From the NCBI GenBank assembly GCA_963692945.1, contig OY843585.1:1080001-1112000 (forward strand): a stretch of 32,000 bases of DNA. Direction: 5' to 3'. The position numbers were made by a program, and so were the translations under genes. The stretch is from Bdellovibrionales bacterium. Lineage in GTDB: Bacteria; Bdellovibrionota; Bdellovibrionia; Bdellovibrionales; UBA1609. Shown piece after piece: positions 1 through 21,612 of the stretch. A model generated the notes under the pieces. The model was given only the letters and a program-made list of their open reading frames with translations, did no database searches and had not been told where the DNA came from. Every line of letters begins with the position of its first letter. The stretch's first letter is position 1.

Positions 1-993
1 TTCTTTAGATATAATATTGTATTCTTTAAAACCATCGTTTGAAAGATCAAGAAAATAAAATAAGGCTTCTTGATAATCCTTTTGATTTAAAATACTTTTT
101 TTAAGATCCTTCTTGTTTTGAGATTCATTAAAAACTTTATCTGCATCTTTATTGGACCAGTTAGAGTTTTGGACCATCTCTTGACCCTCTCCCTCATTCT
201 CTTCCGCTTTCAACATCTCTTGACCCTCTCCCTCATTCTCTTCCGCTTTCAACATCTCTTCATATCTGACTGATAGAGAACCCGTACTATAAAATATAAA
301 ACCATAAGGGCTTATAGATATATTTCTAGCACCTAAAAGCATATATCTAGCACAACCGTCACCACAAAAACCTAATATCTGTAAATCTACTTTTTTCTCT
401 TTAAAATATTCACCTAAAGCCATAGCTACTTCTACATCAATTCCACTAAAAATATTAAGACCAACTTCTTTAATATTATTTTTTTCTAAAGCTTTATCAA
501 GTGCTTTTATCACTTGAGCTGGGTTCTCTTCAGACTTAGAAATCTCTAAAGTCGTATAGTCTTTAGACCCATTTTTTAACATAAACTGTATAGATTCACT
601 TTGGTTATAGAGTAGGACGGTAGCCAGTTTTTCAGGCAAGTTTTCCAACTGGTTAAAAATATAATTTTCTAAAGATTTTATATAGTTGGTAGGCATTGAA
701 TACATTATAGTGAAAATAATTTGAGGATTTAAAGTTTGAAGAGATATATCTCTTATAAACTGATCAGACATAGGTGTATCGTTTTTAAACCATGAAGATT
801 TTAGTAAGGCCTTATCAACTAGATCTTCAACCATTTGATTGGTTTCCTCAAAACTCATTTGCTTTGCATCTTTTATAACTTGCTCGCTAGGATTTTGTTT
901 GGTTTTTTTGTAGGATTCTGGTTCAGAAAAAGCCATTCCAGAAATGAAGATAGTGGTTAAAAGAACAACACGAATGATAAAATTAAAAATCAC
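1..993 (-). CDS. Hypothetical secreted protein, C-terminus off-window; GTG start at 993
   Basis: Not in the supplied ORF track. My manual minus-strand translation is open from GTG (991-993) to position 1. N-terminus V/M-IFNFIIRVVLLTTIFISGMAFS looks like a signal peptide. No family recognised. Confidence 0.55.
   Translation of the reverse strand, partial: MIFNFIIRVVLLTTIFISGMAFSEPESYKKTKQNPSEQVIKDAKQMSFEETNQMVEDLVDKALLKSSWFKNDTPMSDQFIRDISLQTLNPQIIFTIMYSMPTNYIKSLENYIFNQLENLPEKLATVLLYNQSESIQFMLKNGSKDYTTLEISKSEENPAQVIKALDKALEKNNIKEVGLNIFSGIDVEVAMALGEYFKEKKVDLQILGFCGDGCARYMLLGARNISISPYGFIFYSTGSLSVRYEEMLKAEENEGEGQEMLKAEENEGEGQEMVQNSNWSNKDADKVFNESQNKKDLKKSILNQKDYQEALFYFLDLSNDGFKEYNIISKE
175..260. 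repeat. 39-bp perfect tandem duplication (2.2 copies), in frame inside the 1-993 CDS
   Basis: catctcttgaccctctccctcattctcttccgctttcaa occurs at 175-213 and 214-252, with a partial third copy. It encodes EMLKAEENEGEGQ twice. Confidence 0.9.
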
Positions 994-2547: not shown

Positions 2548-3953
2548 TTGAAAGAACCCTCCTTAGAGTCCGATTGACCACCAACTGTAAGTTTTGAAAC
2601 TAAAATCGGAGGTTGACCTACGGTTACAGGCACCCATCCACTTATAGAGCCACAATGTCCAGGACTTAATTTTAAATCTTTTCCAACTTTTTTAATTTTA
2701 GACAAAGTATCCAATCCATTACCTATTAGGCTAGCTCCTTTAACCACTTTATCTAACTTTCCATTTTTAATGAGACGAGCTTCAGTGACAGCAAAATTGT
2801 AACTGCCTGTTCCAGGAGTTACAGAACCTCCACCTAGAGATTCAGCAAATAAACCAAAATCTATATCCTTAATCATATCTTCTAAACTCGATTCACCAGC
2901 GGCTATATAAGTGTTTCTCATTCTTGAAGTAGGAGGGTATTTATAATTTTGTCTTCTTGCACTTCCAGTTATTTTATAGCCCGTCTTTTGAGAACCTATT
3001 TTATCTACCATATAATTTTTTAAAACACCTTTTTCTATAAGAGTTGTTTTTTGAGAAGCATTCCCTTCATCATCTACATTTAAAAATCCATACTCCCCTT
3101 TAATAGTTCCGTCATCATAGGCAGACACACAAGAGTTAGAAATTTTTTCTCCCAATTTATCTGCAAAAACTGATTTTTTATCGGCTACAGAAGTTGTCTC
3201 TAAACCATGCCCACAAGCTTCATGAAAAATAACTCCCCCAAAACCATTATTAATAATAACAGGGAAAGCACCAGCAGGAGCTTTATCTGCTTTTAAATTT
3301 TTTACAGCTTGTTGTCCTGATTTAACCGTTAGCTCTCTCAAAGAATCTTCTGAAAAAGAAGTTTGAATTCCAGCAACTCCCTTAGAAATAAGACCTGTTT
3401 CTTTTTCTCCTTGATCTTCAGCAACAGACATGACTTTAAACAGTTGATAGGGACGAGAGTCAAAAGATAACAAACCTTCTGAGTTTGCAATTTGAACTCT
3501 TTTCTGATTACCAGTGAGACTCAAAATCACTTGAGAAATAAAAGAATTTGTAGATCGTAAATCTTTATCTAACTTTTGAAGAAGTTTTTTTCTATCTTCA
3601 AGACTTTTATCTTGAAATTTTTTTGGAAATTCATAAATAAAAGGATTTACAAAAGGCTCTTCATCAAGTAATGGTTTTTGAATTTTTCTTGTTTTAAGAG
3701 AGGAAAGATTTTTTACAAGTTGAATTAAATTGTTTTCATCAAGATCGTTTGCATAAGTGTAAAGTTCTTCGTTCCCGTAAAAAAGTCTTATACCTACACC
3801 AAAATCTTTTCCAGAAACATAAGTCGCTTTAGAATCTTTTAGCTCCATTTGATAGGCCAAAGTTTCTTCAGCATAGACTTCACAAAAGTCTGCACCAGCA
3901 GATAAACCTGTATTTATAATATTAGATATTAAACTCTTAGATAGCAACATCAT
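2544..3953 (-). CDS. tldD: TldD metalloprotease
   Basis: 469 aa. HEACGHGLE zinc-binding motif and GxGSYNF region typical of TldD. Confidence 0.88.
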   Translation of the reverse strand: MMLLSKSLISNIINTGLSAGADFCEVYAEETLAYQMELKDSKATYVSGKDFGVGIRLFYGNEELYTYANDLDENNLIQLVKNLSSLKTRKIQKPLLDEEPFVNPFIYEFPKKFQDKSLEDRKKLLQKLDKDLRSTNSFISQVILSLTGNQKRVQIANSEGLLSFDSRPYQLFKVMSVAEDQGEKETGLISKGVAGIQTSFSEDSLRELTVKSGQQAVKNLKADKAPAGAFPVIINNGFGGVIFHEACGHGLETTSVADKKSVFADKLGEKISNSCVSAYDDGTIKGEYGFLNVDDEGNASQKTTLIEKGVLKNYMVDKIGSQKTGYKITGSARRQNYKYPPTSRMRNTYIAAGESSLEDMIKDIDFGLFAESLGGGSVTPGTGSYNFAVTEARLIKNGKLDKVVKGASLIGNGLDTLSKIKKVGKDLKLSPGHCGSISGWVPVTVGQPPILVSKLTVGGQSDSKEGSFK

Positions 3954-4733: not shown

Positions 4734-5898
4734 TTAAATCCTTTGCTATATTTTTTTCTAAAGATTCTACGGTTCCTCCACCAATTTCAAGAAGCTTAGA
4801 GTCTCGCCAAAATCTTTCCACATTGTATTCTCCCACATAACCATAACCACCTAAAACTTGTATAGAACGATCAGCAACTGTTTTTGCCATTTGAGAAGCT
4901 ATAAGTTTAGTTGCATCCGTATCCAATCTTTGATTTTGAGATTTATTTTGCATTTTTCGGGCCACATCATAAACAAAAGTTCTCACTGACTTGTATTCAG
5001 CATAACTTTGAGCTAAGTGTTTTTGTATCTGACCAAATTGACGAATAGACTTTCCAAAAGATTTTCTCTCTGAAGCATAACGATTCATATCCTCTAAGCA
5101 ACGACGAGCAATTCCTAAAGACATGGCTGCTAAAGTCAATCGTTCCACCTCTAAGTTTTTCATCATATGTACAAGAGATTCACCTTCTTGACCAACAAGA
5201 TGAGTTTCAGGAACCACACAATTATCAAAAACTAGCTCTGCTGTATTGGAAGATCGCATTCCTAATTTGTCTTGAATTTTTTGACCAACAGAAAAACCTT
5301 TAAAAGATTTCTCAACAATAAAAGTAGAAACTTTCTCTCCTGTTTTAGCATAGACCAAACAGCAATCACAAGGCGTTTTGTTTTCATCCAAACTTCCGTT
5401 TGTGATCCACATTTTACGACCATTGAGTAGATAGTTGTTTCCTTTTTTTTCAGCCTTTGTCTTCATGGCCAAAACATCCGTTCCACAATCTGGTTCGGAC
5501 ATAGCCATAGCTCCTATTTTTTCACCCCTACAAAGAGCTGGAAGAAGTTGTTTTTTTTGCTCCTCATTTGCATTACGATAAATATTATGAACACACAAAA
5601 CACTATGAGCTAGATAGGCTAAACAAAAACCGGGATCAGAAGAACTTAACTCCTCATGAACTAAAACAGCTGCCGTGAGATCCATTCCTGAACCACCTAA
5701 CTCCGTTTCTTTCACTAATAAACCTAAAAGACCTATTTCCCCTAATTTACGAAAAATCTTAAGATTAAATTCTTCCTTTTTATCAAACTCAAGAGCTTGT
5801 CCTTCCAGCTCTTTTTTTACAAAGTCTGAAACCATTTCACGCAAAGCTTTATGCTCAAGGGTAGGTTCAAAAAGAGATAAATCATTCCAGCTAGACAT
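4714..5898 (-). CDS. Acyl-CoA dehydrogenase family protein (isovaleryl/short-branched-chain-like)
   Basis: 394 aa with typical ACAD layout: GAMAMSEPDCGTD, WITNG, and C-terminal LEIGGGT. Its 3' end overlaps the SDR gene start by 20 nt. Confidence 0.85.
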   Translation of the reverse strand: MSSWNDLSLFEPTLEHKALREMVSDFVKKELEGQALEFDKKEEFNLKIFRKLGEIGLLGLLVKETELGGSGMDLTAAVLVHEELSSSDPGFCLAYLAHSVLCVHNIYRNANEEQKKQLLPALCRGEKIGAMAMSEPDCGTDVLAMKTKAEKKGNNYLLNGRKMWITNGSLDENKTPCDCCLVYAKTGEKVSTFIVEKSFKGFSVGQKIQDKLGMRSSNTAELVFDNCVVPETHLVGQEGESLVHMMKNLEVERLTLAAMSLGIARRCLEDMNRYASERKSFGKSIRQFGQIQKHLAQSYAEYKSVRTFVYDVARKMQNKSQNQRLDTDATKLIASQMAKTVADRSIQVLGGYGYVGEYNVERFWRDSKLLEIGGGTVESLEKNIAKDLNGLSQI

Positions 5899-5944: not shown

Positions 5945-7843
5945 TTAAATAATTTTTTTGGAAAAAACTAGTTTATTCGGTAATAAATAAGATTTATTTA
6001 AAGTGTTTTCTGAAATAATTAAGACATCTTTTCCTTTGTTATGACAGGCTGCTAAGCGGAAATGACCTGAACGAAGCCCTCCTAAATACCACCTTGTATC
6101 CCCAACATAAACAATATCAGAAGTATTTGCTTTCATTTTATCAGCCATTTCTTTGGAGATAGAGATGTGATTTGGATCAATGCTATTATTAATTTCTATT
6201 TTTAAATTCTTTACTCTTTTCCCCCAGGCCAGATTAGGTTCTCCCTGTTTAAAAGCCTTCATAGCCTCGTCAATAGTCCCTATTGTGTAACCCAAAAACC
6301 GCTCCTTAAGAGCAGGTTCCGTAAATAAAGTCACAAGGATGCCTGAGAAAGCTGTGACAAGCATACCAAAAAGAGCTCTAAAATAAATAGGGTCTCCCTT
6401 AGGAGAACCATAAACAAAATCTCTTAAAGGATAAATCCATTCTGGAAAAAAGAGCGTTAAAAAGCTAAAAGATACTCCCGTCACTAAAGCAATATTAGCA
6501 GCCTTACTATTAAACCGATTCCATAAAATACCTAAAAGTAAAGTGACTACAATAGAAGGAATGATTATCATAATACCTTTATAGTGAATGGACATTAAGG
6601 TTCCTTTTTGTTGATAAAACCAAACCACTAAAAGCAATCCTAAACCAGTTGAAACAATAGAAGCATATCTAGCAACACGAAGATAATGTTTATCACTCGC
6701 TTTAGGTTTTATGAGAGGCTTATAAATATCGTAAATACCAATGGCAGAAGCGGCATTGATTAAAGTGTCAATGGTTGACATAAGAGCAGCAAGTAAAGCC
6801 GCTAAAATAAAACCTAAAACGATAGGGTTATCTTGAACTACATACCAAACCACAGTCACAAAAGTATGAAAACTATCTTCTATTTGTAAAAAACTTTGAT
6901 TGGCAAGAGCTTGATTGAGAGATTCTTGCTTAACCATAATGGACTTTCCTAACCAACCAATAGAGCCTACCACAATCGCTGATAAAGGCAGAGAAATGAG
7001 AACATTTGCGAAACCTGCAAAACGAGCTTCATTAACACTTCGGATACTTAAGTATCTCATTAAAAATCCTTGGTTTAAAAATACAAAAGCAATACTGCCT
7101 GCCACAGCATCTCCCCAAAACATACCTACAGAATTAAAATAAGGGTTTTCTCTAAAAGGAGCAAAAGGGATACGATGCTCTAACGGGAGGTAAGAAAAAA
7201 ACTCTCCAAACCCTCCAAGCACATAAAGACCATAACCAAAAGCTAAAAATCCAATAAAATAAAGAAGCAAGCCTTGAACAAGGTCTGTAAAAATAACAGC
7301 TGTTTGCCCACCTAAAGTGACATAAGTTCCTAAAAGTAAAGTGATAAAAGGTAAAGTGTAAAGTGGAGAAAAGCCAAAAATACCTTCAAAGGCTAAACCT
7401 ATAGTGAAAAGATTGTAACCTATATAATAAAAAATATAACATAGTAAAATAAAGACTGTGATGTAACGAGCTGATTTATTAAATCTTTTTTCAAAATATT
7501 CTGGAATGGATTTGATTCGTGAAAAATAAATGATAGGAAGCCAACCAAAAAAGAACAAAGGAACGATAAACCAGTCGTTCATATACCCCATTGCACTACT
7601 CATTCCTGTATTAAAGCCTTGTTGAGAGTACTTGAGGTAGCTGTAAGAACCTATACCTGTTGCCATCATACTAAAAAAAGGAAGCCACCACGCAAATCTT
7701 TGACCACTAAAAAAGAAATCATGAATACTAGAACTGAATTTAGAAAAATAGATACCAAAAAAAGTGATCATTAAAAAATAACAGGAAACTATTCCTAAAA
7801 TAATTAACAAAGTTGTGCTACTAAGATTTATACCAAAATTCAT
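5945..7843 (-). CDS. Sodium:solute symporter (SSS) family transporter with about 110 aa C-terminal soluble extension
   Basis: 632 aa, polytopic hydrophobic protein with SSS-like spacing of TM segments. The hydrophilic tail starts at about GYTIGTIDEAMKAF. Confidence 0.7.
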   Translation of the reverse strand: MNFGINLSSTTLLIILGIVSCYFLMITFFGIYFSKFSSSIHDFFFSGQRFAWWLPFFSMMATGIGSYSYLKYSQQGFNTGMSSAMGYMNDWFIVPLFFFGWLPIIYFSRIKSIPEYFEKRFNKSARYITVFILLCYIFYYIGYNLFTIGLAFEGIFGFSPLYTLPFITLLLGTYVTLGGQTAVIFTDLVQGLLLYFIGFLAFGYGLYVLGGFGEFFSYLPLEHRIPFAPFRENPYFNSVGMFWGDAVAGSIAFVFLNQGFLMRYLSIRSVNEARFAGFANVLISLPLSAIVVGSIGWLGKSIMVKQESLNQALANQSFLQIEDSFHTFVTVVWYVVQDNPIVLGFILAALLAALMSTIDTLINAASAIGIYDIYKPLIKPKASDKHYLRVARYASIVSTGLGLLLVVWFYQQKGTLMSIHYKGIMIIIPSIVVTLLLGILWNRFNSKAANIALVTGVSFSFLTLFFPEWIYPLRDFVYGSPKGDPIYFRALFGMLVTAFSGILVTLFTEPALKERFLGYTIGTIDEAMKAFKQGEPNLAWGKRVKNLKIEINNSIDPNHISISKEMADKMKANTSDIVYVGDTRWYLGGLRSGHFRLAACHNKGKDVLIISENTLNKSYLLPNKLVFSKKII

Positions 7844-8353: not shown

Positions 8354-8453
8354 ATTTAACCTTTATCTAAATCATTTTTTTTAGTTTATTTGTAGTCTTT
8401 TTTAAGTCTTTTTAAAGACCTAACATCTCTTTTTTTCAAAAGCAATAGGATAT

Positions 8454-8747
8454 ACAAAACTCTAGTGTGTGAATTTTTATTTTCACGAGATTTGAAGAAC
8501 TTATCCATATGCGAAAAACCGTAGTTTTTCTCTAGGCATACCCTTTTTACTTTTTGAGGTTGAAGAGTGTCCCTCTTACGATGAAAACTCCTAAACTAAT
8601 TTGCGAAAACCAGTAGGTTTTCTCTAGTTCAAACATAAGCCTATTAAGCAACTCTTATTTTAACGAGATTTGAAGAGTGTCCCCTTTTACGATGAAAAGC
8701 TCGTTAAAATAAGAGTAGGAATTTACCTTAACTGAACGAGAGTTTTG
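8454..8747 (+). mobile_element. Mosaic palindromic repeat element (BIME/MITE-like) with imperfect 13-bp terminal inverted repeats
   Basis: Left end acaaaactctagtgtgtgaatttttattttcacgag (8454-8489) is identical to 21423-21458. Right end gaacgagagttttg (8734-8747) is its inverted copy with 1 mismatch. Core copies at 8560-8586 and 8668-8699. The second core is enclosed by a perfect 17-bp stem (8651-8667 / 8700-8716). Confidence 0.7.
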
Positions 8748-8748
8748 A

Positions 8749-9035
8749 TTTTACAGACTTAAGTACAAAGCACAAAGTTTAATAATTTATTAAACTTGAC
8801 TCTACCCCCCCCCATTTAAAACTAGTAATAATTAACCAAAGAAAGGAGAAAATTATGAAATATTTAATACTATTAAGTTTATTTTTTTGCATACAAGTTT
8901 TTGCAAAGAAACCAAATCTGTCGGACCTACCTGCTGTAGGTGTAGGTGGATATGGTGGTGCTGTGGTTACCAATAAGGGACTTCCAGGTGGTGGATATCC
9001 TGCAACTGGGAACGAGAGAGATATTAGAAAAGAAC
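8749..9035 (+). repeat. Direct repeat copy A: promoter, signal peptide and Gly-rich 5' cassette
   Basis: Near-identical to 13201-13465 outside the ~35-nt 5'UTR. One 21-bp in-frame indel (8967-8987). Confidence 0.9.
8796..8822 (+). promoter_or_regulatory. Candidate sigma70-type promoter with C9 tract in the spacer
   Basis: TTGACT (8796-8801), 15-nt spacer containing C9 (8805-8813), TAAAAC (8817-8822). RBS AAAGGAG lies 7 nt before the ATG at 8855. Confidence 0.5.
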
Positions 9036-9298
9036 AGTTACAAAGAAAGTATGATATTGATCAAGCCTATTTTCTAGGTCGCTTAGATACGGTAACAAAT
9101 AATTTGAAAAGTCTTAAAAAAGCAAATATAAAAAGATACCGTATGGGAAAAAATCTTTTTCAATATAGCATGAAGAACCCTTTTTCAAATAAGGAGATTG
9201 CTAAACGAGATTTCAAAATTCTTGAAAAAAGATACAGAAGTCTGAAGAAAAAGATAGGAACAATAGAAAAGATCTTAACACAAGGCCTGGTAAATTAA
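8855..9298 (+). CDS. Small secreted Gly-rich / Lys-rich helical protein, paralog A
   Basis: 147 aa. Signal peptide MKYLILLSLFFCIQVFA, GVGGYGGAV Gly-rich segment, basic C-terminal half. Paralog of 13307-13729. Confidence 0.75.
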   Translation: MKYLILLSLFFCIQVFAKKPNLSDLPAVGVGGYGGAVVTNKGLPGGGYPATGNERDIRKEQLQRKYDIDQAYFLGRLDTVTNNLKSLKKANIKRYRMGKNLFQYSMKNPFSNKEIAKRDFKILEKRYRSLKKKIGTIEKILTQGLVN

Positions 9299-9370
9299 AG
9301 AAATAAGCGTTAAGAAAAGAAGTAAACGTTAAGGTTGTAAAACTTTAACGGTTATTTTTACAAGACTTAA

Positions 9371-9580
9371 ACAAAACTCTAGTTCAGATCTAATACCCTT
9401 TTCTTTTTAGGAGATTTTCGTCGTAAGAGGGACACTCTTTTACAAAACTCTAGTGTTACCTTTCTTATTTTCTGACCTTTCATCGTAAGAGGGACACTCT
9501 TCAAGTTCAGAAAATAAGAAAGGGATTCATAGAGAAAACCTACTGGTTTTTTTTGCATGTGGTAATCTTTTCAAATCTCA
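9371..9580 (-). repeat. Mosaic palindromic repeat cluster, cores inverted relative to 8454-8747
   Basis: Reverse-complement cores at 9415-9441 (partial; lacks the TTGAA 5' end) and 9476-9506. The second is enclosed by a perfect 17-bp stem cctttcttattttctga / tcagaaaataagaaagg (9459-9475 / 9507-9523). acaaaactctagt motif at 9371-9383 and 9442-9454. Confidence 0.7.
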
Positions 9581-9614
9581 AAAAACAAAAAAGTCTTTCT
9601 AGGGAAAAATGGAG

Positions 9615-10187
9615 TTAACGAATTGGTTTTCTTGCTTTGGCTCCATGATCTTTAAGGATTTCAGCCACTTCTGTATGTTTTAAATTTTGTGCTTTTTCTA
9701 AAAGGAAAGGAATTCCGTTTTCATTTTTTTCGTTCACATCTGCTCCTGCTTCTATCAGAAGTTTTACGATTTTAGGAAAATTTTTAAAAACAGCCCAAAA
9801 AAGAGCTGAGTTTGGTCTTACTGATGATGATCCAAATGGATCACTTCTTGAATTAGGGTCATGACCTTTATCCAGAAGACATTTTACAGCTTCTGTGTCT
9901 CCAAATACGACAGATCTCGCAAGATCATCAGGTATTGTTAAAAGACGATCATTTTGTATCACCAACTCAACTGCTGGATCTATGGCAATAAATATACCAG
10001 ATTCAATAATGCGAGTTCGTTCTATCACCTTGCAACCTTTAACCATTTCATACTTTCTATTGGCTTCAAGATATTTTTTGGTTTCTTCTAGAGTCATGTT
10101 TTCATTTTTTTTCAGATTGTCATCTTCTTTACAAGAAAGTTGAAACAAGCTTCCAATAAGTATAAAAATAAATAAAATATATTTCAT
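9615..10187 (-). CDS. Ankyrin-repeat protein with signal peptide (possible lipoprotein), paralog 1
   Basis: 190 aa. N-terminus MKYILFIFILIGSLFQLSC. ANK-like segments (KIVKLLIEAGADVNEKNENG). Tandem paralog of 10341-10898. Confidence 0.8.
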   Translation of the reverse strand: MKYILFIFILIGSLFQLSCKEDDNLKKNENMTLEETKKYLEANRKYEMVKGCKVIERTRIIESGIFIAIDPAVELVIQNDRLLTIPDDLARSVVFGDTEAVKCLLDKGHDPNSRSDPFGSSSVRPNSALFWAVFKNFPKIVKLLIEAGADVNEKNENGIPFLLEKAQNLKHTEVAEILKDHGAKARKPIR

Positions 10188-10340
10188 AAGAATAACCTAT
10201 CAAATTTTGTAAAAGAAGTAAATTTGTTATCTGCTTTATGAAAAGGAATGTATTGCTCACTCTATACAAGTAGGAGTTTTTATCTATTTTGTATGAAGTT
10301 TTTTATTCAGTTGTAGATGTATTGTCATGAAAAAAATTAT

Positions 10341-10898
10341 TTAACGAATTGGTTTTTTTAGTGTAGCTCCATGAGCTTTAAGGATTTCTGCTATCTCTCC
10401 ATCAGAATGTATTAACAGAAAAGAATCTCCTTTATAATCTTTCTCATTTACGTTCGCTCCTGCTTCTGCCAGAAGCTTTACGATTTTAGGGTTATTGTTA
10501 GAAACAGCTAAATGAAGAGCGGAAGGTGGTACTCCTGCTGATCCAAATGGCTGACTTTTTACATTAGGGTCATGACCTTTATCCAGAAGACATTTTACAG
10601 CTTCTACATCTTCAAACGCAATAGACCTCACAAGGTCATCAGGTATTGTTAAGTCTTGTCTATTTTTTTCCAATAGCCTGCCTACTGAATCAAAGTCAAT
10701 AGATATACCAATCTGAATATTACGAGTTCGTTCTATCACCTTACAACCTTTAACCATTTCATATTTTCTTTCAGCTTCAAGAGTTCTTTTAGCTTCTTCT
10801 AGAGTCCTAAACCCTTCTATCCTTGGTATTTTATCTTCTTTACAAGAAAATTGAAATAAGCTTCCAATAAATATAAAAATAAATAAAATGTATTTCAT
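10341..10898 (-). CDS. Ankyrin-repeat protein with signal peptide (possible lipoprotein), paralog 2
   Basis: 185 aa. N-terminus MKYILFIFIFIGSLFQFSC. ANK motif KIVKLLAEAGANVNEKDYKG. Shares its C-terminal KPIR and long identical nucleotide runs with paralog 1. Confidence 0.8.
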   Translation of the reverse strand: MKYILFIFIFIGSLFQFSCKEDKIPRIEGFRTLEEAKRTLEAERKYEMVKGCKVIERTRNIQIGISIDFDSVGRLLEKNRQDLTIPDDLVRSIAFEDVEAVKCLLDKGHDPNVKSQPFGSAGVPPSALHLAVSNNNPKIVKLLAEAGANVNEKDYKGDSFLLIHSDGEIAEILKAHGATLKKPIR

Positions 10899-10964
10899 AA
10901 TGGTTTTAACCTATCAAAATTTGTAAAAGAAGTAAAAAATTTTTTCATAATCTATATCTTTTTT

Positions 10965-12839
10965 TTAAAAATACTTACATGCATTAGCTGTAGGTTCTTG
11001 ATGATTAGGGGTTTTTTTCTTTTCTTTTGTATTTAAGTTTTTAATTCTATTTTCAATGTATTTTTTCATATCCTTAAATCTATTTATTCCTTCAGCCTTA
11101 CTCATAAGTTCAATAGATTCTTTACTAGCTTGTAATAAAAAAGCTCTAGCTGAGACCATAATCTCTATAGATTTACTGTTTGTATATTTATTAATTGCTC
11201 CCAAAATAAGAAGTAAATTCTTACACTTACAAAATTTTTCTGGCTGAAGATTCGCTTTCTTTATAAATGGCTCAATTTGATCAGAGGAAATACATATAGA
11301 TTTTATCTGTCCTAATGGAATCTTTCTTTGTGATCCTTGAGTCACACAAGCCACTTCATTTTTATTAAATACACCACCACCACTATATCCAGGGACAATG
11401 TTAGTTTCCTTTAATTGACCATAGTCATTATTTAAGAAGATAACTTTTCCTGATTCAATAACACTTAAGTCACTTTTTAAATATTCCACAACACTTCCTT
11501 TTGGAACATTAGAGGTTAAAGGAATGTTTTTATTTAACTGAGCTTGAAACATTTTATTTATTTCTTCCTCTGTTACAAGACCTTTTTTTGCAAGTTGCTG
11601 AAGATATATTCTCTCTGAAGGTTCTAACAAATCTCCATTTGTTATAGGATTTCCTATAATTTCAAGAAGAGCTAAATCAAGATCACAATCATAATAGATA
11701 ATATTAGCTGATTTCTTTTTACCAGATGTTAATGTAATAGATACACTTTGACCTGTTTGAGCTTGTTTTTTAACACCTGTATTGTCACTTATTACATGAT
11801 AGTTTGTAATAATGTATTTTGATGAATACAAAAAGCCATTTCCAGTTCCTGCGATTGAATTGACCCTAACCCCTCTCAATATACTTGAAAAAGGAGATGT
11901 TTCAAGCAATTCTAAGAGCTCTTTTTTTAATTTTTCAACTTCTTCAGTTTCTCCTATGTCTTTCATAAAAATTATTTTTCGTTTAATTTCTTCTGCTCTG
12001 CTAAGCCAGATTTGTAAATTTGCTTTTGCAACATCACTTGGAGCTACTTGAGCAAAAAAGGCTTGTAGTTTTTTTGCCTTTGCTATTTGAATGTCTAAGT
12101 AAGGTTCAAATGTATTTTTAAATTCAATAAATTGTTCTTTAGTTATCTTAGGAGGGGGAATTAAGGAGGGATTTATACCATTTTCAGGGACACTTTGTGG
12201 GTTTCTCAGATCAGGTATAATTTGAGGTCTTGTCGGTGTTGTTGGAATTGGATCAGGAGAAGTCGGTGTTGTTGTAAGAGGAGGATCAGAAATAATTTGA
12301 GATGTAGGTGTCGTTATAGGAGGATCATAAGGATTAAGTCTATCTGATAAACCCTCTGTTGTTCTAAAAAAATCTGGTTGAATGCGATTTATTTCATCTT
12401 GATTTTCATTTATAATGCTAATGGCTTCGTCTTTATCTTTTGAACTTCCATATTTTAATACATCTTTATAGTATTTTAAACCCTCTCTTTTATCTTTTCT
12501 TACACCCTTAGCTCCATAAAAATACATATGAGCTATAAATGGAGCTGTTTCTTTTTTGTAACCCAAGTCATAGGACTCTTTAAAATCTTCTAAGGATTTC
12601 GCCATATTAGGTTTTATAAAAAGTTCATCTGTTCCTTGATGTTTCACTCCGTAGTAATGTATTTTTCCCATTTCAAAAAGATATTCTTTATCTTTTTTTG
12701 AGTAGGCTTTTTCTTTTATAAAATTATAGCTGTCAGGGAACATCACAAGATTTTCAGAAAAACTAAAAAAAGGGGAAAATAAAAGAAGAAGAAAAAGACT
12801 TTTAAAGGACATTAAAATAATATATCGGAAAATTATCAA
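10965..12839 (-). CDS. Secreted Sel1-like repeat, Pro/Thr linker, trypsin-like (S1) serine protease fusion
   Basis: Signal peptide, then Sel1-like repeats (IAHMYFYGAKGVRKDKREGLKYYKDV) and a PT-rich linker (PPITTPTSQ...TTPTRPQ). Catalytic triad context: TNYHV (His), DLDLALLEI (Asp), GYSGGGVF (Ser). The track start is TTG at 12839; ATG at 12812 (MSFKSLF...) is an alternative. Confidence 0.75.
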   Translation of the reverse strand: MIIFRYIILMSFKSLFLLLLFSPFFSFSENLVMFPDSYNFIKEKAYSKKDKEYLFEMGKIHYYGVKHQGTDELFIKPNMAKSLEDFKESYDLGYKKETAPFIAHMYFYGAKGVRKDKREGLKYYKDVLKYGSSKDKDEAISIINENQDEINRIQPDFFRTTEGLSDRLNPYDPPITTPTSQIISDPPLTTTPTSPDPIPTTPTRPQIIPDLRNPQSVPENGINPSLIPPPKITKEQFIEFKNTFEPYLDIQIAKAKKLQAFFAQVAPSDVAKANLQIWLSRAEEIKRKIIFMKDIGETEEVEKLKKELLELLETSPFSSILRGVRVNSIAGTGNGFLYSSKYIITNYHVISDNTGVKKQAQTGQSVSITLTSGKKKSANIIYYDCDLDLALLEIIGNPITNGDLLEPSERIYLQQLAKKGLVTEEEINKMFQAQLNKNIPLTSNVPKGSVVEYLKSDLSVIESGKVIFLNNDYGQLKETNIVPGYSGGGVFNKNEVACVTQGSQRKIPLGQIKSICISSDQIEPFIKKANLQPEKFCKCKNLLLILGAINKYTNSKSIEIMVSARAFLLQASKESIELMSKAEGINRFKDMKKYIENRIKNLNTKEKKKTPNHQEPTANACKYF

Positions 12840-12905
12840 AAAAACTTTAGTTGTTTATCTAGGAAAGTTTAAAAAAACTATCTTAGTGATTACTTTAGAT
12901 TTTAG

Positions 12906-12926
12906 ATCGTTCAGTTTTTGAACGAT
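12906..12926. promoter_or_regulatory. 8-bp perfect hairpin upstream of the protease gene
   Basis: atcgttca-gtttt-tgaacgat, 67 nt upstream of the 12839 start. Function unknown. Confidence 0.3.
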
Positions 12927-13200
12927 AATTTCATTTAAAAAATGAATAAAGTTCTAAAGAATATATAATTTCCTACAAAAACAAGTTCTAAAAAGGAGGA
13001 TGAAAATAAAAAAAGCCCTCTCAAAAAGAGGACTTTTTATTTATTAAGAAAGAGATGTGCTTACCTTATTTTTGGTCTGAATCTCTTGCCACTTCTTGCC
13101 AATGAGTGCTATTCTTTGCCTTTAAAAGTGTTGATTTACTTATGTTTTATTGAATTTACAACGCTCCAAATTTTTCCTACTCATTGAGGTTTTAAAAAAA

Positions 13201-13465
13201 TTTACAGACTTAAGTACAAAGCACAAAGCTTAATAATTTATTAAACTTGACTCTACCCCCCCCCATTTAAAATAAAATATAACATAATTAAACAAAGGAG
13301 GAAATTATGAAATATTTAATACTATTAAGTTTATTTTTTTGCATACAAGTTTTTGCAAAGAAACCAAGTTTGTCGGACCTACCTGCTGTAGGTGTAGGTG
13401 GATATGGTGGTGCTGTGGGTGGTGGATATCCTGGAACTGGGAACGAGAGAGATATTAGAGAAGAA
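13201..13465 (+). repeat. Direct repeat copy B: promoter, signal peptide and Gly-rich 5' cassette
   Basis: See 8749-9035. The two copies lie in direct orientation 4.45 kb apart. Confidence 0.9.
13247..13273 (+). promoter_or_regulatory. Candidate sigma70-type promoter with C9 tract in the spacer
   Basis: TTGACT (13247-13252), 15-nt spacer containing C9 (13256-13264), TAAAAT (13268-13273). RBS AAAGGAGG precedes the ATG at 13307. Confidence 0.5.
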
Positions 13466-13729
13466 ACTTTACAAAAATATTATTCTAGTCAAGTATTTGA
13501 TTGGGGGGGTCACGTAGAAACGGTAAGAAACAGTTTGAAAAATCTTAACAGAGCAAATGATAAAAAATACCGTCAGGGAAAAAAATTATTTGAATATAGA
13601 AAAGCGCAGAAATTTTCAAACCAGGCACTTGCTAGAAAAGATTTAAAAGATCTTAAAACAAGCCACTACAACGTGAAAAAAAATATAGCAAGAATAGAAG
13701 ATATGTTAAAACGACTAGATGCGCGTTAA
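13307..13729 (+). CDS. Small secreted Gly-rich / Lys-rich helical protein, paralog B
   Basis: 140 aa. The first ~38 aa are near-identical to paralog A, while the C-terminal half is diverged but alignable. Contains a G7 run at 13503-13509. Confidence 0.75.
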   Translation: MKYLILLSLFFCIQVFAKKPSLSDLPAVGVGGYGGAVGGGYPGTGNERDIREETLQKYYSSQVFDWGGHVETVRNSLKNLNRANDKKYRQGKKLFEYRKAQKFSNQALARKDLKDLKTSHYNVKKNIARIEDMLKRLDAR

Positions 13730-13770
13730 GTTTTTACAAGCTTAAGGTTTATTCTAACAAGATTCAGATA

Positions 13771-13798
13771 AGAGTTAAGGTTTTACAATCTTAACTCT
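13771..13798 (+). terminator. Candidate terminator hairpin of paralog B
   Basis: agagttaag-gttttacaat-cttaactct gives a 9-bp stem, but the downstream T tract is weak. Confidence 0.4.
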
Positions 13799-14090
13799 TA
13801 TTCTAACGAGATTTGAAGAGTGTCCCCTCTTACGATGAAAGCTCCTAAACTAATGTGCGAAAACCAGCAGGTTTTCTCTAGGAACACCCCTCCTTATTTT
13901 CTGAACTTGAAGAGTGTCCCTCTTACGATGAAAGCTCCTAAACTAATGTGCGAAAACCAGCAGGTTTTCTCTAGTTCAAACATAAGCCTATTAAGTAACT
14001 CTTATTTTAACGAGATTTGAAGAGCGTCCCTCTTGCGATGAAAAGCTCGTTAAAATAAGAGTAGGAAATATTTTTTTGAACGAGAGTTTC
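13798..14090 (+). repeat. Mosaic palindromic repeat array (three cores, one 95-bp direct duplication)
   Basis: Cores at 13811-13841, 13906-13934 and 14015-14045. The ~70-nt module 13811-13881 is repeated at 13906-13975. The third core is enclosed by a 17-bp stem (13998-14014 / 14046-14062). A right-end-like gaacgagagtttc motif lies at about 14078-14090. Confidence 0.75.
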
Positions 14091-14125
14091 AAAAAAAAAG
14101 CGACGAAGAAAACTCCGTCGCTTTT
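14091..14125 (-). terminator. Rho-independent terminator of the 23S-5S operon
   Basis: On the minus strand: GCGACG-gagttttctt-CGTCGC followed by T9. Confidence 0.75.
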
Positions 14126-17826: not shown

Positions 17827-18456
17827 ATGAGACCAGTAACTTTATCTCTTTTTTTGTTTATTTTATTCATTCCAGCGACAACCCTATCTGCTGAAAAAGT
17901 TAAAAAACAAGAATCTTTTTTACAAAAAGTGGAAAACTTTTTTGGATTATCTTCCACTAAAAAAACAAAGGATCCAAAAAAGATAAAAGAATCTGAGACA
18001 ACAGCTATTTCCTATACAGATAAAAAAGATGTTGTTGATTCCAACTACTATAGAAAAATCAGTTCTAAAGCTATCAAAACTAAACAGGATAATCTTATCA
18101 ATGCCATGTCTAACTCTTGTGATCCTAATGAAAGTCCCTTTGAAAGATTAAAAACTTTTAAATCCAATCTCATAAAATTAAGAAAATATTTAAAAGCCAT
18201 TAGCACTTCACCCAAAGTTGATCTTGATCAACAGATGCAATCTAAAGATATTTATTTACAAATCAATGAGGAAAATGTTCCTTTCTTAAACATTATAGAT
18301 GAAGAAGGTGCAACTATAAAAGACAAGGTGTTGGCTTTAGAAAAATTTTTCTTATCTTATCAAGGTTACTATATTAAAGATAAAGAAAGTGATTTAGATG
18401 ACTGGGCAAAAACAATCGTTAAGGGAATAACTTGTATTGATGGCCAATCTCTTTAA
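17827..18456 (+). CDS. Hypothetical secreted protein
   Basis: 209 aa. Strong RBS AGGAGG and signal peptide MRPVTLSLFLFILFIPATTLSA. No family recognised. Confidence 0.7.
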   Translation: MRPVTLSLFLFILFIPATTLSAEKVKKQESFLQKVENFFGLSSTKKTKDPKKIKESETTAISYTDKKDVVDSNYYRKISSKAIKTKQDNLINAMSNSCDPNESPFERLKTFKSNLIKLRKYLKAISTSPKVDLDQQMQSKDIYLQINEENVPFLNIIDEEGATIKDKVLALEKFFLSYQGYYIKDKESDLDDWAKTIVKGITCIDGQSL

Positions 18457-20134: not shown

Positions 20135-20851
20135 TTAGTTATCTTTCCAGCAACTTTTGGTTGATAAGCCTAACTTTCCTCTGATTCTTTGGCATTTCCC
20201 CTCAGATAACAAATTAGCAAGATTTTTATTAGAAACATAGTTAATGGCTTTTCTTCCATTTTCATCTTGAATGCCTACATCGGCTCCTGATTTTAGCAAC
20301 AGTTTAACAACCTCTATATGTCCTCCAATAGAAGCCCATATCAAAGCTGTTTTTTCCTGTTGACCTTGAATATCTACATCTGCTTCTTCTAAAAGTAACA
20401 GTTCAACAAGCTCTGGATGTCCTTGACTAGAAGCATGCATTAGAGCTGTATTCCCATAGGTGTTTTGACGATTTACATCTGCTTCTTCTAAAACCAACAG
20501 TTCAGCAATCTCTATATGCCCTTCATTAGAAGCATGCATCAGAGCTGTTTTTCCATTTTTATCTTGAATGTCTGCATCTGCTCCTTCTAAAAGTAACAGT
20601 TCAACAATCTCTATATGTCCTTTATGAGAAGCCCATGTCAGAGCTGTATCCCCAGATACATTTTGACGGTTCAGATCCTTTTCTTCTAACACCTTTAACT
20701 TTATCAGTTTTTTAACAATATCTACATCGCCTTTTTCAACAGCCAAAAAGAAGATTTCTATCTTTTCTTGAATGATCTCTGAAATATCTGCATAAGTTGA
20801 AGTGACTACAAAAGTAGTAAAAAAGGATAATACTAAAAATAATTTTTTCAT
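20135..20851 (-). CDS. Secreted ankyrin-repeat protein (about 5 regular 33-aa ANK repeats)
   Basis: GDTALTWASHKGHIEIVELLLLEGADADIQDKNGKTALMHASNEGHIEIAELL... . I prefer the ATG at 20851 (MKKLFLVLSFF...), which is preceded by AAGGAG, over the track start at 20884. Confidence 0.85.
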   Translation of the reverse strand: MKKLFLVLSFFTTFVVTSTYADISEIIQEKIEIFFLAVEKGDVDIVKKLIKLKVLEEKDLNRQNVSGDTALTWASHKGHIEIVELLLLEGADADIQDKNGKTALMHASNEGHIEIAELLVLEEADVNRQNTYGNTALMHASSQGHPELVELLLLEEADVDIQGQQEKTALIWASIGGHIEVVKLLLKSGADVGIQDENGRKAINYVSNKNLANLLSEGKCQRIRGKLGLSTKSCWKDN

Positions 20852-21056
20852 AAATACTCCTTTTAAGGATGTTGAACCATTCACATATTGAGGGATTTAA
20901 AAAATAAAATCAAGATAGAAACCAAAAAGTGCAAAAATTTCAAAAAGAGCTAAAAATTAAAACAGGATTCCTTCTTTTTTAAACTTAGGACAATGATTAT
21001 CGGTTTTTAGAAAATTTAAGACTAAATATCACTTTCCTAGCGGGTCATAAAATTTC

Positions 21057-21420: not shown

Positions 21421-21612
21421 TTACAAAACTCTAGTGTGTGAATTTTTATTTTCACGAGCTTTTCATCGTAAAAGGGGACACTCTTCAAATCTCGTGAAAA
21501 ATAAAAGTTTTAACATAGAGAAAAACTTCTGTTTTTCGCATATGGGTAAGATCTTCAAATCTCGTTAAAATAAGAGTAGAAAAATATTTAAGTAATTGAA
21601 CTAGAGTTTTGT
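21421..21612. mobile_element. MITE-like member of the mosaic repeat family with perfect 13-bp TIRs
   Basis: TIRs acaaaactctagt (21423-21435) and actagagttttgt (21600-21612). Internal inverted core at 21459-21490 is enclosed by a stem (21443-21458 / 21491-21507). The element fills the whole gap between the erpA stop and the ferredoxin stop. Confidence 0.7.

Follow-up and report, generated by a model that had tools for sequence, protein, structure and literature searches.

The Island and Its Genomic Context

The window discussed here is the whole 32,000-nucleotide stretch of DNA that was analysed, which has a G+C content of about 32% outside the rRNA genes. The 23S and 5S rRNA genes lie on the minus strand of the window, and a lineage-specific island is found between the 5S rRNA gene and a gene for a 164-aa membrane protein (mem164). 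The island is bracketed by two paralogous genes, termed gene A and gene B, and the space between them is taken up by two tandem ankyrin lipoprotein genes and the gene for a trypsin-like/Sel1 protein.

8354..14075: lineage-specific island, 5.7 kb, between mem164 and the 5S rRNA gene
8855..9298, plus strand: gene A, 147 aa, with a signal peptide (MKYLILLSLFFCIQVFA/KK), a Gly/Tyr-rich disordered linker and a C-terminal helical hairpin
9615-10187 and 10341-10898: ankyrin lipoprotein paralogs
10965-12839: 624-aa trypsin-like/Sel1 protein with a proline-rich linker
13307..13729, plus strand: gene B, 140 aa, paralog of A, near-identical in codons 1-59 and diverged in the rest

The island is absent from the syntenic locus of the nearest syntenic relative (L019), where the 5S gene abuts the homologue of the mem164 gene with a spacer of 56 nt. 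The trypsin-like protein of the island has a single homologue among 5.8 billion proteins, and this is a paralog encoded in the same genome. Probing with the adjacent sodium:solute symporter showed the nearest relatives to be uncultured Bdellovibrionales MAGs whose chromosomes measure 1.3–2.3 Mb, and the closest symporters share 54–78% amino-acid identity. The island genes are of the host-interaction type, and the lineage is apparently host-associated, with a reduced genome of about 1.5 Mb. A further ankyrin protein, encoded at 20135-20884, is likewise missing from L019.

The region also contains a dispersed element that resembles a MITE, with inverted termini ACAAAACTCTAGTGT and AACTAGAGTTTTGT and internal hairpins (units TTGAAGAGTGTCCC..TACGATGAAA and GCGAAAACCAGTAGGTTTTCTCTAG). 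Its copies are located as follows.

8454-8748: MITE-like copy
9371-9600: MITE-like copy, inverted
about 13790-14092: MITE-like copy
21423-21612: MITE-like copy

The compact copy, of about 190 bp, lies between convergent genes at 21.4 kb. The longer or rearranged copies are inverted around gene A and form direct repeats at the bounds of the island, and one of them stops 1 nt before the promoter block of gene A. The element was found neither in related loci, including the 56-nt spacer of L019, nor in the metagenome collection.

Predicted Promoter Anatomy at Genes A and B

Upstream of both genes, a run of nine C lies between two predicted promoter hexamers and sets the length of the spacer, the hexamers being recognised from the sequence only.

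8750..8821, plus strand: conserved promoter block upstream of gene A; its copy at 13201-13272 is 71/72 identical
8775..8797: 23-bp perfect AT-rich palindrome, AAGTTTAATAA-T-TTATTAAACTT, abutting the gene A -35
8796..8801, plus strand: predicted -35 of gene A, TTGACT, 5/6 against consensus
8805..8813, plus strand: C9 tract of gene A, inside the 15-nt spacer 8802-8816
8817..8822, plus strand: predicted -10 of gene A, TAAAAC
8818-8823, plus strand: alternative -10 of gene A, AAAACT, which gives a 16-nt spacer and retains A-11 and T-7
8845..8848, plus strand: Shine-Dalgarno GGAG, 6 nt 5' of the gene A ATG (8855)
13201..13272, plus strand: promoter block of gene B
13247..13252, plus strand: predicted -35 of gene B, TTGACT
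13256..13264, plus strand: C9 tract of gene B, inside a 15-nt spacer
13268..13273, plus strand: predicted -10 of gene B, TAAAAT, 5/6 against consensus, including A at position 2 and T at position 6

Read directly from the sequence, the order at gene A is TTGACT, CTA, C9, ATT and TAAAAC. In the first-pass annotation, the C9 tract (8805-8813) separates TTGACT from TAAAAC in a spacer of 15 nt, and its coordinates match exactly; the same tract that it reported at the paralogous promoter (13256-13264) is indeed present as an identical C9. The layout at gene B, whose ATG is at 13307, is the same as at gene A, and its -10, TAAAAT, is closer to the consensus than TAAAAC of gene A, in which the final T is absent. 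The TTGACT/TAAAAY pair agrees with the consensus at 9–10 of 12 positions. A consensus promoter scanner that takes spacers of 16–18 nt only was silent on both promoters, because a 15-nt spacer falls outside this range.

Only a handful of TTGAC boxes occur outside annotated genes in the window. Among them are TTGACT-16-TACAAT, in front of the gene at 17827, and TTGACT-17-TAGATT, in front of the 23S rRNA. Since these other convincing intergenic TTGACT promoters have spacers of 16–17 nt, the 15 nt at A and B is atypical and looks suboptimal. Canonical sigma-70 spacing appears to be in use by the organism, judging from these predicted sites. A tract of C10 would give a spacer of 16 nt, C11 one of 17 nt and C12 one of 18 nt, and this count agrees with the earlier proposal that lengthening to C10–C12 approaches the 17-nt optimum. 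If AAAACT with its 16-nt spacer is the -10 of gene A, C9 may already be a working state. A promoter on the minus strand that would use the tract as G9 was considered and set aside, its hexamers being poor by eye (TACTAG-17-TAGAGT). Near the start of the window (181-260), a direct repeat in tandem, TTGACCCTCTCCCTCATTCTCTTCCGCTTTCAACATCTC, with a period of 39 nt came to light solely through duplicated TTGAC matches.

The palindrome that abuts the -35 of gene A is the only perfect one in the window with arms of at least 9 bp, and for arms of at least 11 bp the expectation is 0.1. The copy at gene B (13226-13248) has one arm mismatch. The palindrome is possibly an UP element or the operator of a dimeric regulator, as far as its sequence indicates. 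Upstream of promoter B, between it and the trypsin-like gene, a strong Shine-Dalgarno, AAGGAGG, is followed by a 15-codon mini-ORF, MKIKKALSKRGLFIY (12990-13040), the sequence of which forms a bidirectional terminator-like hairpin (13010-13038). The window holds no tRNA or tmRNA genes.

Excess of Long G/C Runs

Two G/C runs of at least nine were observed in the window, where 0.03 are expected under a first-order Markov model, and none of 300 simulations gave as many. This bears out the earlier remark that a C9 is unexpected in DNA this AT-rich, and the tract is longer than the base composition predicts. Under the same model, runs of at least five are depleted (8 observed against 14.8 expected). 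Matches to C7 numbered 7, against 0.81 expected by shuffling, and G/C runs of at least seven are restricted, over the 32 kb, to the two C9 tracts and one G7 within gene B. In general, the window avoids G/C homopolymers, and the long ones are concentrated on the A/B gene pair. As paralogous copies, the two C9 tracts represent one event rather than two independent ones. An artefact of poly-G/poly-C sequencing is unlikely: the tracts are located mid-contig with unique, well-formed flanks, and the run is present twice. Their absolute length could be off by one, as an assembly of long reads may err by one base in either direction.

13503..13509, plus strand: G7 run in gene B (TGG GGG GGT)

The gain or loss of one G in the G7 run would end the protein of gene B ahead of its helical hairpin, after 80 or 69 aa, and the run is possibly a second, translational switch. 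With one run of seven per window against about 0.7 by chance, it is near expectation, and the aligned position of gene A lacks a tract.

A Secreted, Genome-Specific Protein Family

The proteins of genes A and B are 59% identical in amino-acid sequence over the alignment (56% in the local alignment of BLASTP). They match no Pfam family, and they were the sole members found in an indexed search of 5.8 billion protein clusters. When 1.84 billion representatives were searched exhaustively with an HMM, one further protein was found, a third paralog, P0003 (133 aa, E = 6e-4), which is encoded outside the window on the same 1.56-Mb contig as A and B. All three have a signal peptide with FA at its end and K next, then a linker rich in Gly and a C-terminal region rich in lysine. 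No homologues beyond these three were found, and all of them lie on one contig; when A, B and P0003 were compared with 80 related loci by tblastn, all matches were at chance level. The first-pass annotation had described the product of gene A as an orphan with a signal peptide and no recognisable family, a description that the blank Pfam result and the restriction of its paralogs to the same contig uphold. By their sequence features, A, B and P0003 form a real, secreted, genome-specific protein family. The predicted promoters are thus those of genes with a surface or secreted product, the signal peptide being visible and the island also encoding ankyrin lipoproteins and the trypsin/Sel1 protein.

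AlphaFold (AF2) predicts the C-terminal region as an antiparallel helical hairpin, with a pLDDT above 90 at residues 80-140. A Foldseek search of the PDB returned nothing at E <= 0.001. Identity with a FadA-like adhesin was considered and rejected, as FadA chains were matched at E of about 2 with TM scores of 0.4–0.5 and there was no Pfam match. The A and B products resemble FadA in being secreted helical hairpins some 110 residues long, and in nothing more.

Mosaic Conservation Between the Two Copies

The similarity of the two copies changes abruptly along the aligned region, given here in gene A coordinates.

8750-8821: promoter block, A and B 71/72 identical
8817-8845: from the last -10 bases up to the Shine-Dalgarno, 20/30 identical
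8846-8965: 117/120 identical
8966-8995: 21-nt indel between A and B
8996-9025: 29/30 identical
beyond 9025: 47–83% identical
codons 1-59: dS 0.028, dN 0.026
codons 60-147: dS 0.315, dN 0.50

The 16 nt directly 3' of the 72-nt promoter block (8822-8837) have diverged between A and B. The tenfold lower synonymous divergence in the 5' part points to gene conversion of a cassette that comprises the promoter and the signal peptide. In the 3' half, dN/dS is about 1.6, which is not significantly above 1; the 3' halves of A and B have undergone at least relaxed, possibly diversifying evolution. A conserved module for expression and secretion joined to a variable body is typical of variable families of surface or secreted proteins.

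The first-pass annotation had also taken the conservation of C9 between the paralogs as support for its proposal. This part of the argument fails, since the 71/72 identity of the block most likely arose by gene conversion and the equal length of the tracts therefore says little about function; equal length does not speak for instability. That both tracts are C9 despite about 2–3% divergence of the surrounding modules argues, if mildly, against hypermutability and for a selected or stable length, and the equality carries no information if conversion was recent. In known phase-variable systems, the tracts of paralogous genes are usually unequal in length. The promoter anatomy of the earlier reading stands, and it gains support from the UP-like palindrome before the near-consensus -35, the conservation of TAAAAY in both paralogs and the sensible distances to the Shine-Dalgarno and the ATG.

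A Parallel Arrangement in a Related Genome

Further copies of the locus were sought in other sequence collections. An exact-pattern scan of GTDB species genomes gave no matches, the source genome itself not being among those representatives, and neither the promoter flank nor the adjacent repeat unit had a match in the JGI metagenomes. No second strain, metagenome contig or read set with the locus was found in the collections searched, so that one genome copy is visible.

A similar layout is encountered in L018 (OZ241325.1), a more distant Bdellovibrionales MAG. The 21.9 kb at its positions 1-21878 contain 11 G/C runs of at least seven, and five runs of at least nine, where about 0.4 of the latter are expected. 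Three of the tracts lie in promoter-like modules.

TTGACA-AAAAAT-G10-TAAAGT: 16-nt spacer, upstream of a signal-peptide LRR protein
TTGACA-AAAAAT-G7AG3-TAAATT: 17-nt spacer, upstream of a truncated copy of the LRR 5' end
TTGACA-AAAAAT-G11-ATTTAT: upstream of a small lipoprotein
5082-5109, reverse complement of 3215-3221, and reverse complement of 1672-1682: positions of these spacer tracts
7339-7348: G10 after a -10-like TATAA/TTTAAT motif, upstream of a glutaredoxin gene
15-24: G10 after a -10-like TATAA/TTTAAT motif

The three modules are homologous to each other, and G10 and G7AG3 differ by one base. That paralogous tracts are one base apart, with one of them interrupted, shows that the length of such tracts shifts in the course of evolution. 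Conserved genes of L018 also have internal runs (C8 in a PilT-like ATPase, G8 in a purK-like gene and G9 in an SSF transporter), which cautions against reading too much into the parallel, as long runs are then not necessarily hazardous in the clade, and poly-G may be a genome-wide habit of L018. Judging from the predicted hexamers, the order of -35, homopolymer and -10 in front of secreted-protein genes exists elsewhere in the Bdellovibrionales, independently of the A/B pair.

Tract Length as a Possible Switch and Alternative Explanations

The arrangement at A and B is compatible with regulation by tract length. The C9 would be located in a sigma-70-type core promoter made up of the UP-like palindrome, TTGACT, the 15-nt spacer and TAAAAY, and the two promoters would drive the genes of two small secreted helical-hairpin proteins. 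Nine of the 15 bases in the spacer belong to the tract, so that its length should govern how strong the promoter is. In the C9 state (15 nt) the promoter would have low activity or be off, while C11 (17 nt) would be the optimum, and slipped-strand mispairing at replication would lead to stochastic, reversible switching or tuning of A and B. What we infer in this model is where transcription starts, which sigma factor is used, how spacer length acts and, above all, that the tract varies in length. The chances that the A/B tract is part of a genuine tract-length-dependent, slippage-prone promoter seem to be about even. The locus is a plausible member of the class of phase-variable promoters with a homopolymer in the spacer, in which the switching itself is the inferred part.

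Three other explanations have to be weighed against tract-length switching. The tract might be a fixed promoter element, i.e., a stable, selected GC-rich spacer of a deliberately weak or activator-dependent promoter, for example one served by a dimeric regulator at the 23-bp palindrome, with A and B controlled conventionally in parallel. This is rather unlikely, and several observations are nevertheless in its favour: the C9 lengths are identical in a block that is more conserved than the adjoining initial transcribed region, the centre of the palindrome is about 43 nt upstream of the predicted start, which is a class-II-activator-like position, long G/C runs are tolerated inside housekeeping genes of L018, and one of the paralogous tracts in that genome is interrupted (G7AG3) and so stabilised. 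However, the palindrome is not perfect at gene B and could simply be an AT-rich UP element, and recent gene conversion explains the identity of the block equally well (dS 0.03 in the 5' part versus 0.32 in the 3' part). In addition, we know of no type of regulator that needs a C9 spacer, and 9-nt G/C homopolymers are, to our knowledge, mutable wherever they have been measured. In T. pallidum, poly-G tracts of 7–11 vary within isolates (PMC7864442).

It is improbable that the true promoter lies further upstream, for example at TTAAGT(8759)-16-AATAAT(8781), with the palindrome as its operator. This would place the C9 in the 5' UTR, with an RNA-level role, if any, and changes in its length would have little effect on transcription. 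The -10 of this candidate matches the consensus at 5/6 positions and sits mid-palindrome, inside the conserved block, and the consensus scanner made no call for the TTGACT/TAAAAC promoter. Yet the -35 of the upstream candidate matches at just 3/6 positions, and the candidate is itself under the threshold of the scanner, while TTGACT/TAAAAY matches at 9–10/12 and TTGACT also serves as the -35 at the other promoter-like sites of the window. The putative leader folds no better than shuffled sequence (z = +1.65 and +0.16), there is no stable RNA fold involving the C tract, which is left unpaired, and no Rfam family matches at the gathering score. The repetition of the -35/tract/-10 layout in L018 likewise argues against an upstream promoter. 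Quite improbable, finally, is a functionless passenger in a recently duplicated or converted cassette, within a repeat-rich island decorated with MITE-like elements, the excess of long runs being a single copied event. The tracts are indeed not independent, their block being 71/72 identical, and the island abounds in dispersed repeats and in MITE-like copies that have been rearranged. But one C9 by itself already has an expectation of only about 0.03 in 32 kb, this one lies exactly between two good hexamers in a block that is better conserved than the next 16 nt, and an unrelated genome has evolved the same arrangement with poly-G.

Implications for the Lineage

It is tempting to speculate that the segment from the palindrome to the signal peptide is a portable 'switch-and-secrete' cassette, which is kept identical by gene conversion, is fused to fast-diversifying effector domains and brackets a new host-interaction island. 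Together with L018, this would make contingency promoters recurrent in symbiont-like descendants of predatory bacteria. Such an extension is unlikely.

A full-text search of the literature turned up no paper that connects Bdellovibrio with phase variation through homopolymers. Should the tracts indeed slip, Bdellovibrionota would gain its first reported case of phase variation of the contingency-locus type. The lineage is uncultured and has a small genome, and its accessory ankyrin, Sel1 and LRR proteins and its secreted orphans suggest that it is associated with a eukaryotic host. In the event of slippage, stochastic on/off control of secreted proteins, which is best known from mucosal pathogens, would extend to environmental, symbiont-like bacteria, and the members of the A/B/P0003 family would probably be factors that face the host or the prey. 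Without slippage, the promoter is an ordinary one, if unusual.

Comparison with Known Systems

The vlp genes of Mycoplasma hyorhinis form a paralogous family with a poly-A tract in the spacer between -35 and -10, for which switching has been demonstrated. Like genes A and B, they combine a conserved promoter and signal-peptide 5' module with divergent 3' regions. The vlp system differs in that the tract is poly-A and the products are lipoproteins with size-variable tandem repeats.

In the porA gene of Neisseria meningitidis, as at A and B, a G/C homopolymer is located wholly in a sigma-70 spacer and the product is exported. A G9 tract with a 15-nt spacer is reportedly the off state of porA, as van der Ende et al. 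are said to have found in 1995, and this state would correspond to the C9 state at A and B. A 17-nt spacer is optimal for porA, and expression drops as the spacer shortens (PMC7864442). The differences are that for porA both the length variation and its effect on expression are experimental, in a human pathogen and for a porin, whereas A and B are known from their sequence, with two paralogous promoters and an orphan helical-hairpin product in an uncultured member of the Bdellovibrionales.

In Treponema pallidum, tp0126 has a poly-G tract between -35 and -10; transcription is optimal at 17 nt, and shorter spacers abolish it (PMC7864442). In the promoters of tprE, tprG and tprJ, a regulator site (CRP) acts with the tract (PMC7864442). 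The tp0126 and tpr tracts, of about 7–11 nt, and the signal-peptide proteins in paralogous families resemble the A/B arrangement. The proteins are unrelated, and length heterogeneity in T. pallidum was detected by fragment-length analysis, with effects seen in GFP reporters, in contrast to A and B, which are known from sequence.

The C-stretch in the promoters of fim2, fim3 and fimX in Bordetella is a further case in which tract length tunes transcription (PMC1891110). The fim genes of B. pertussis share with A and B a poly-C tract in the promoters of paralogous secreted or surface genes, as a common element beside an activator-dependent region. The Bordetella tracts range from C7 to C19, are unequal between paralogs and strains, and belong to BvgA-dependent promoters without a good -35, whereas the A and B promoters both have C9 and a near-consensus -35.
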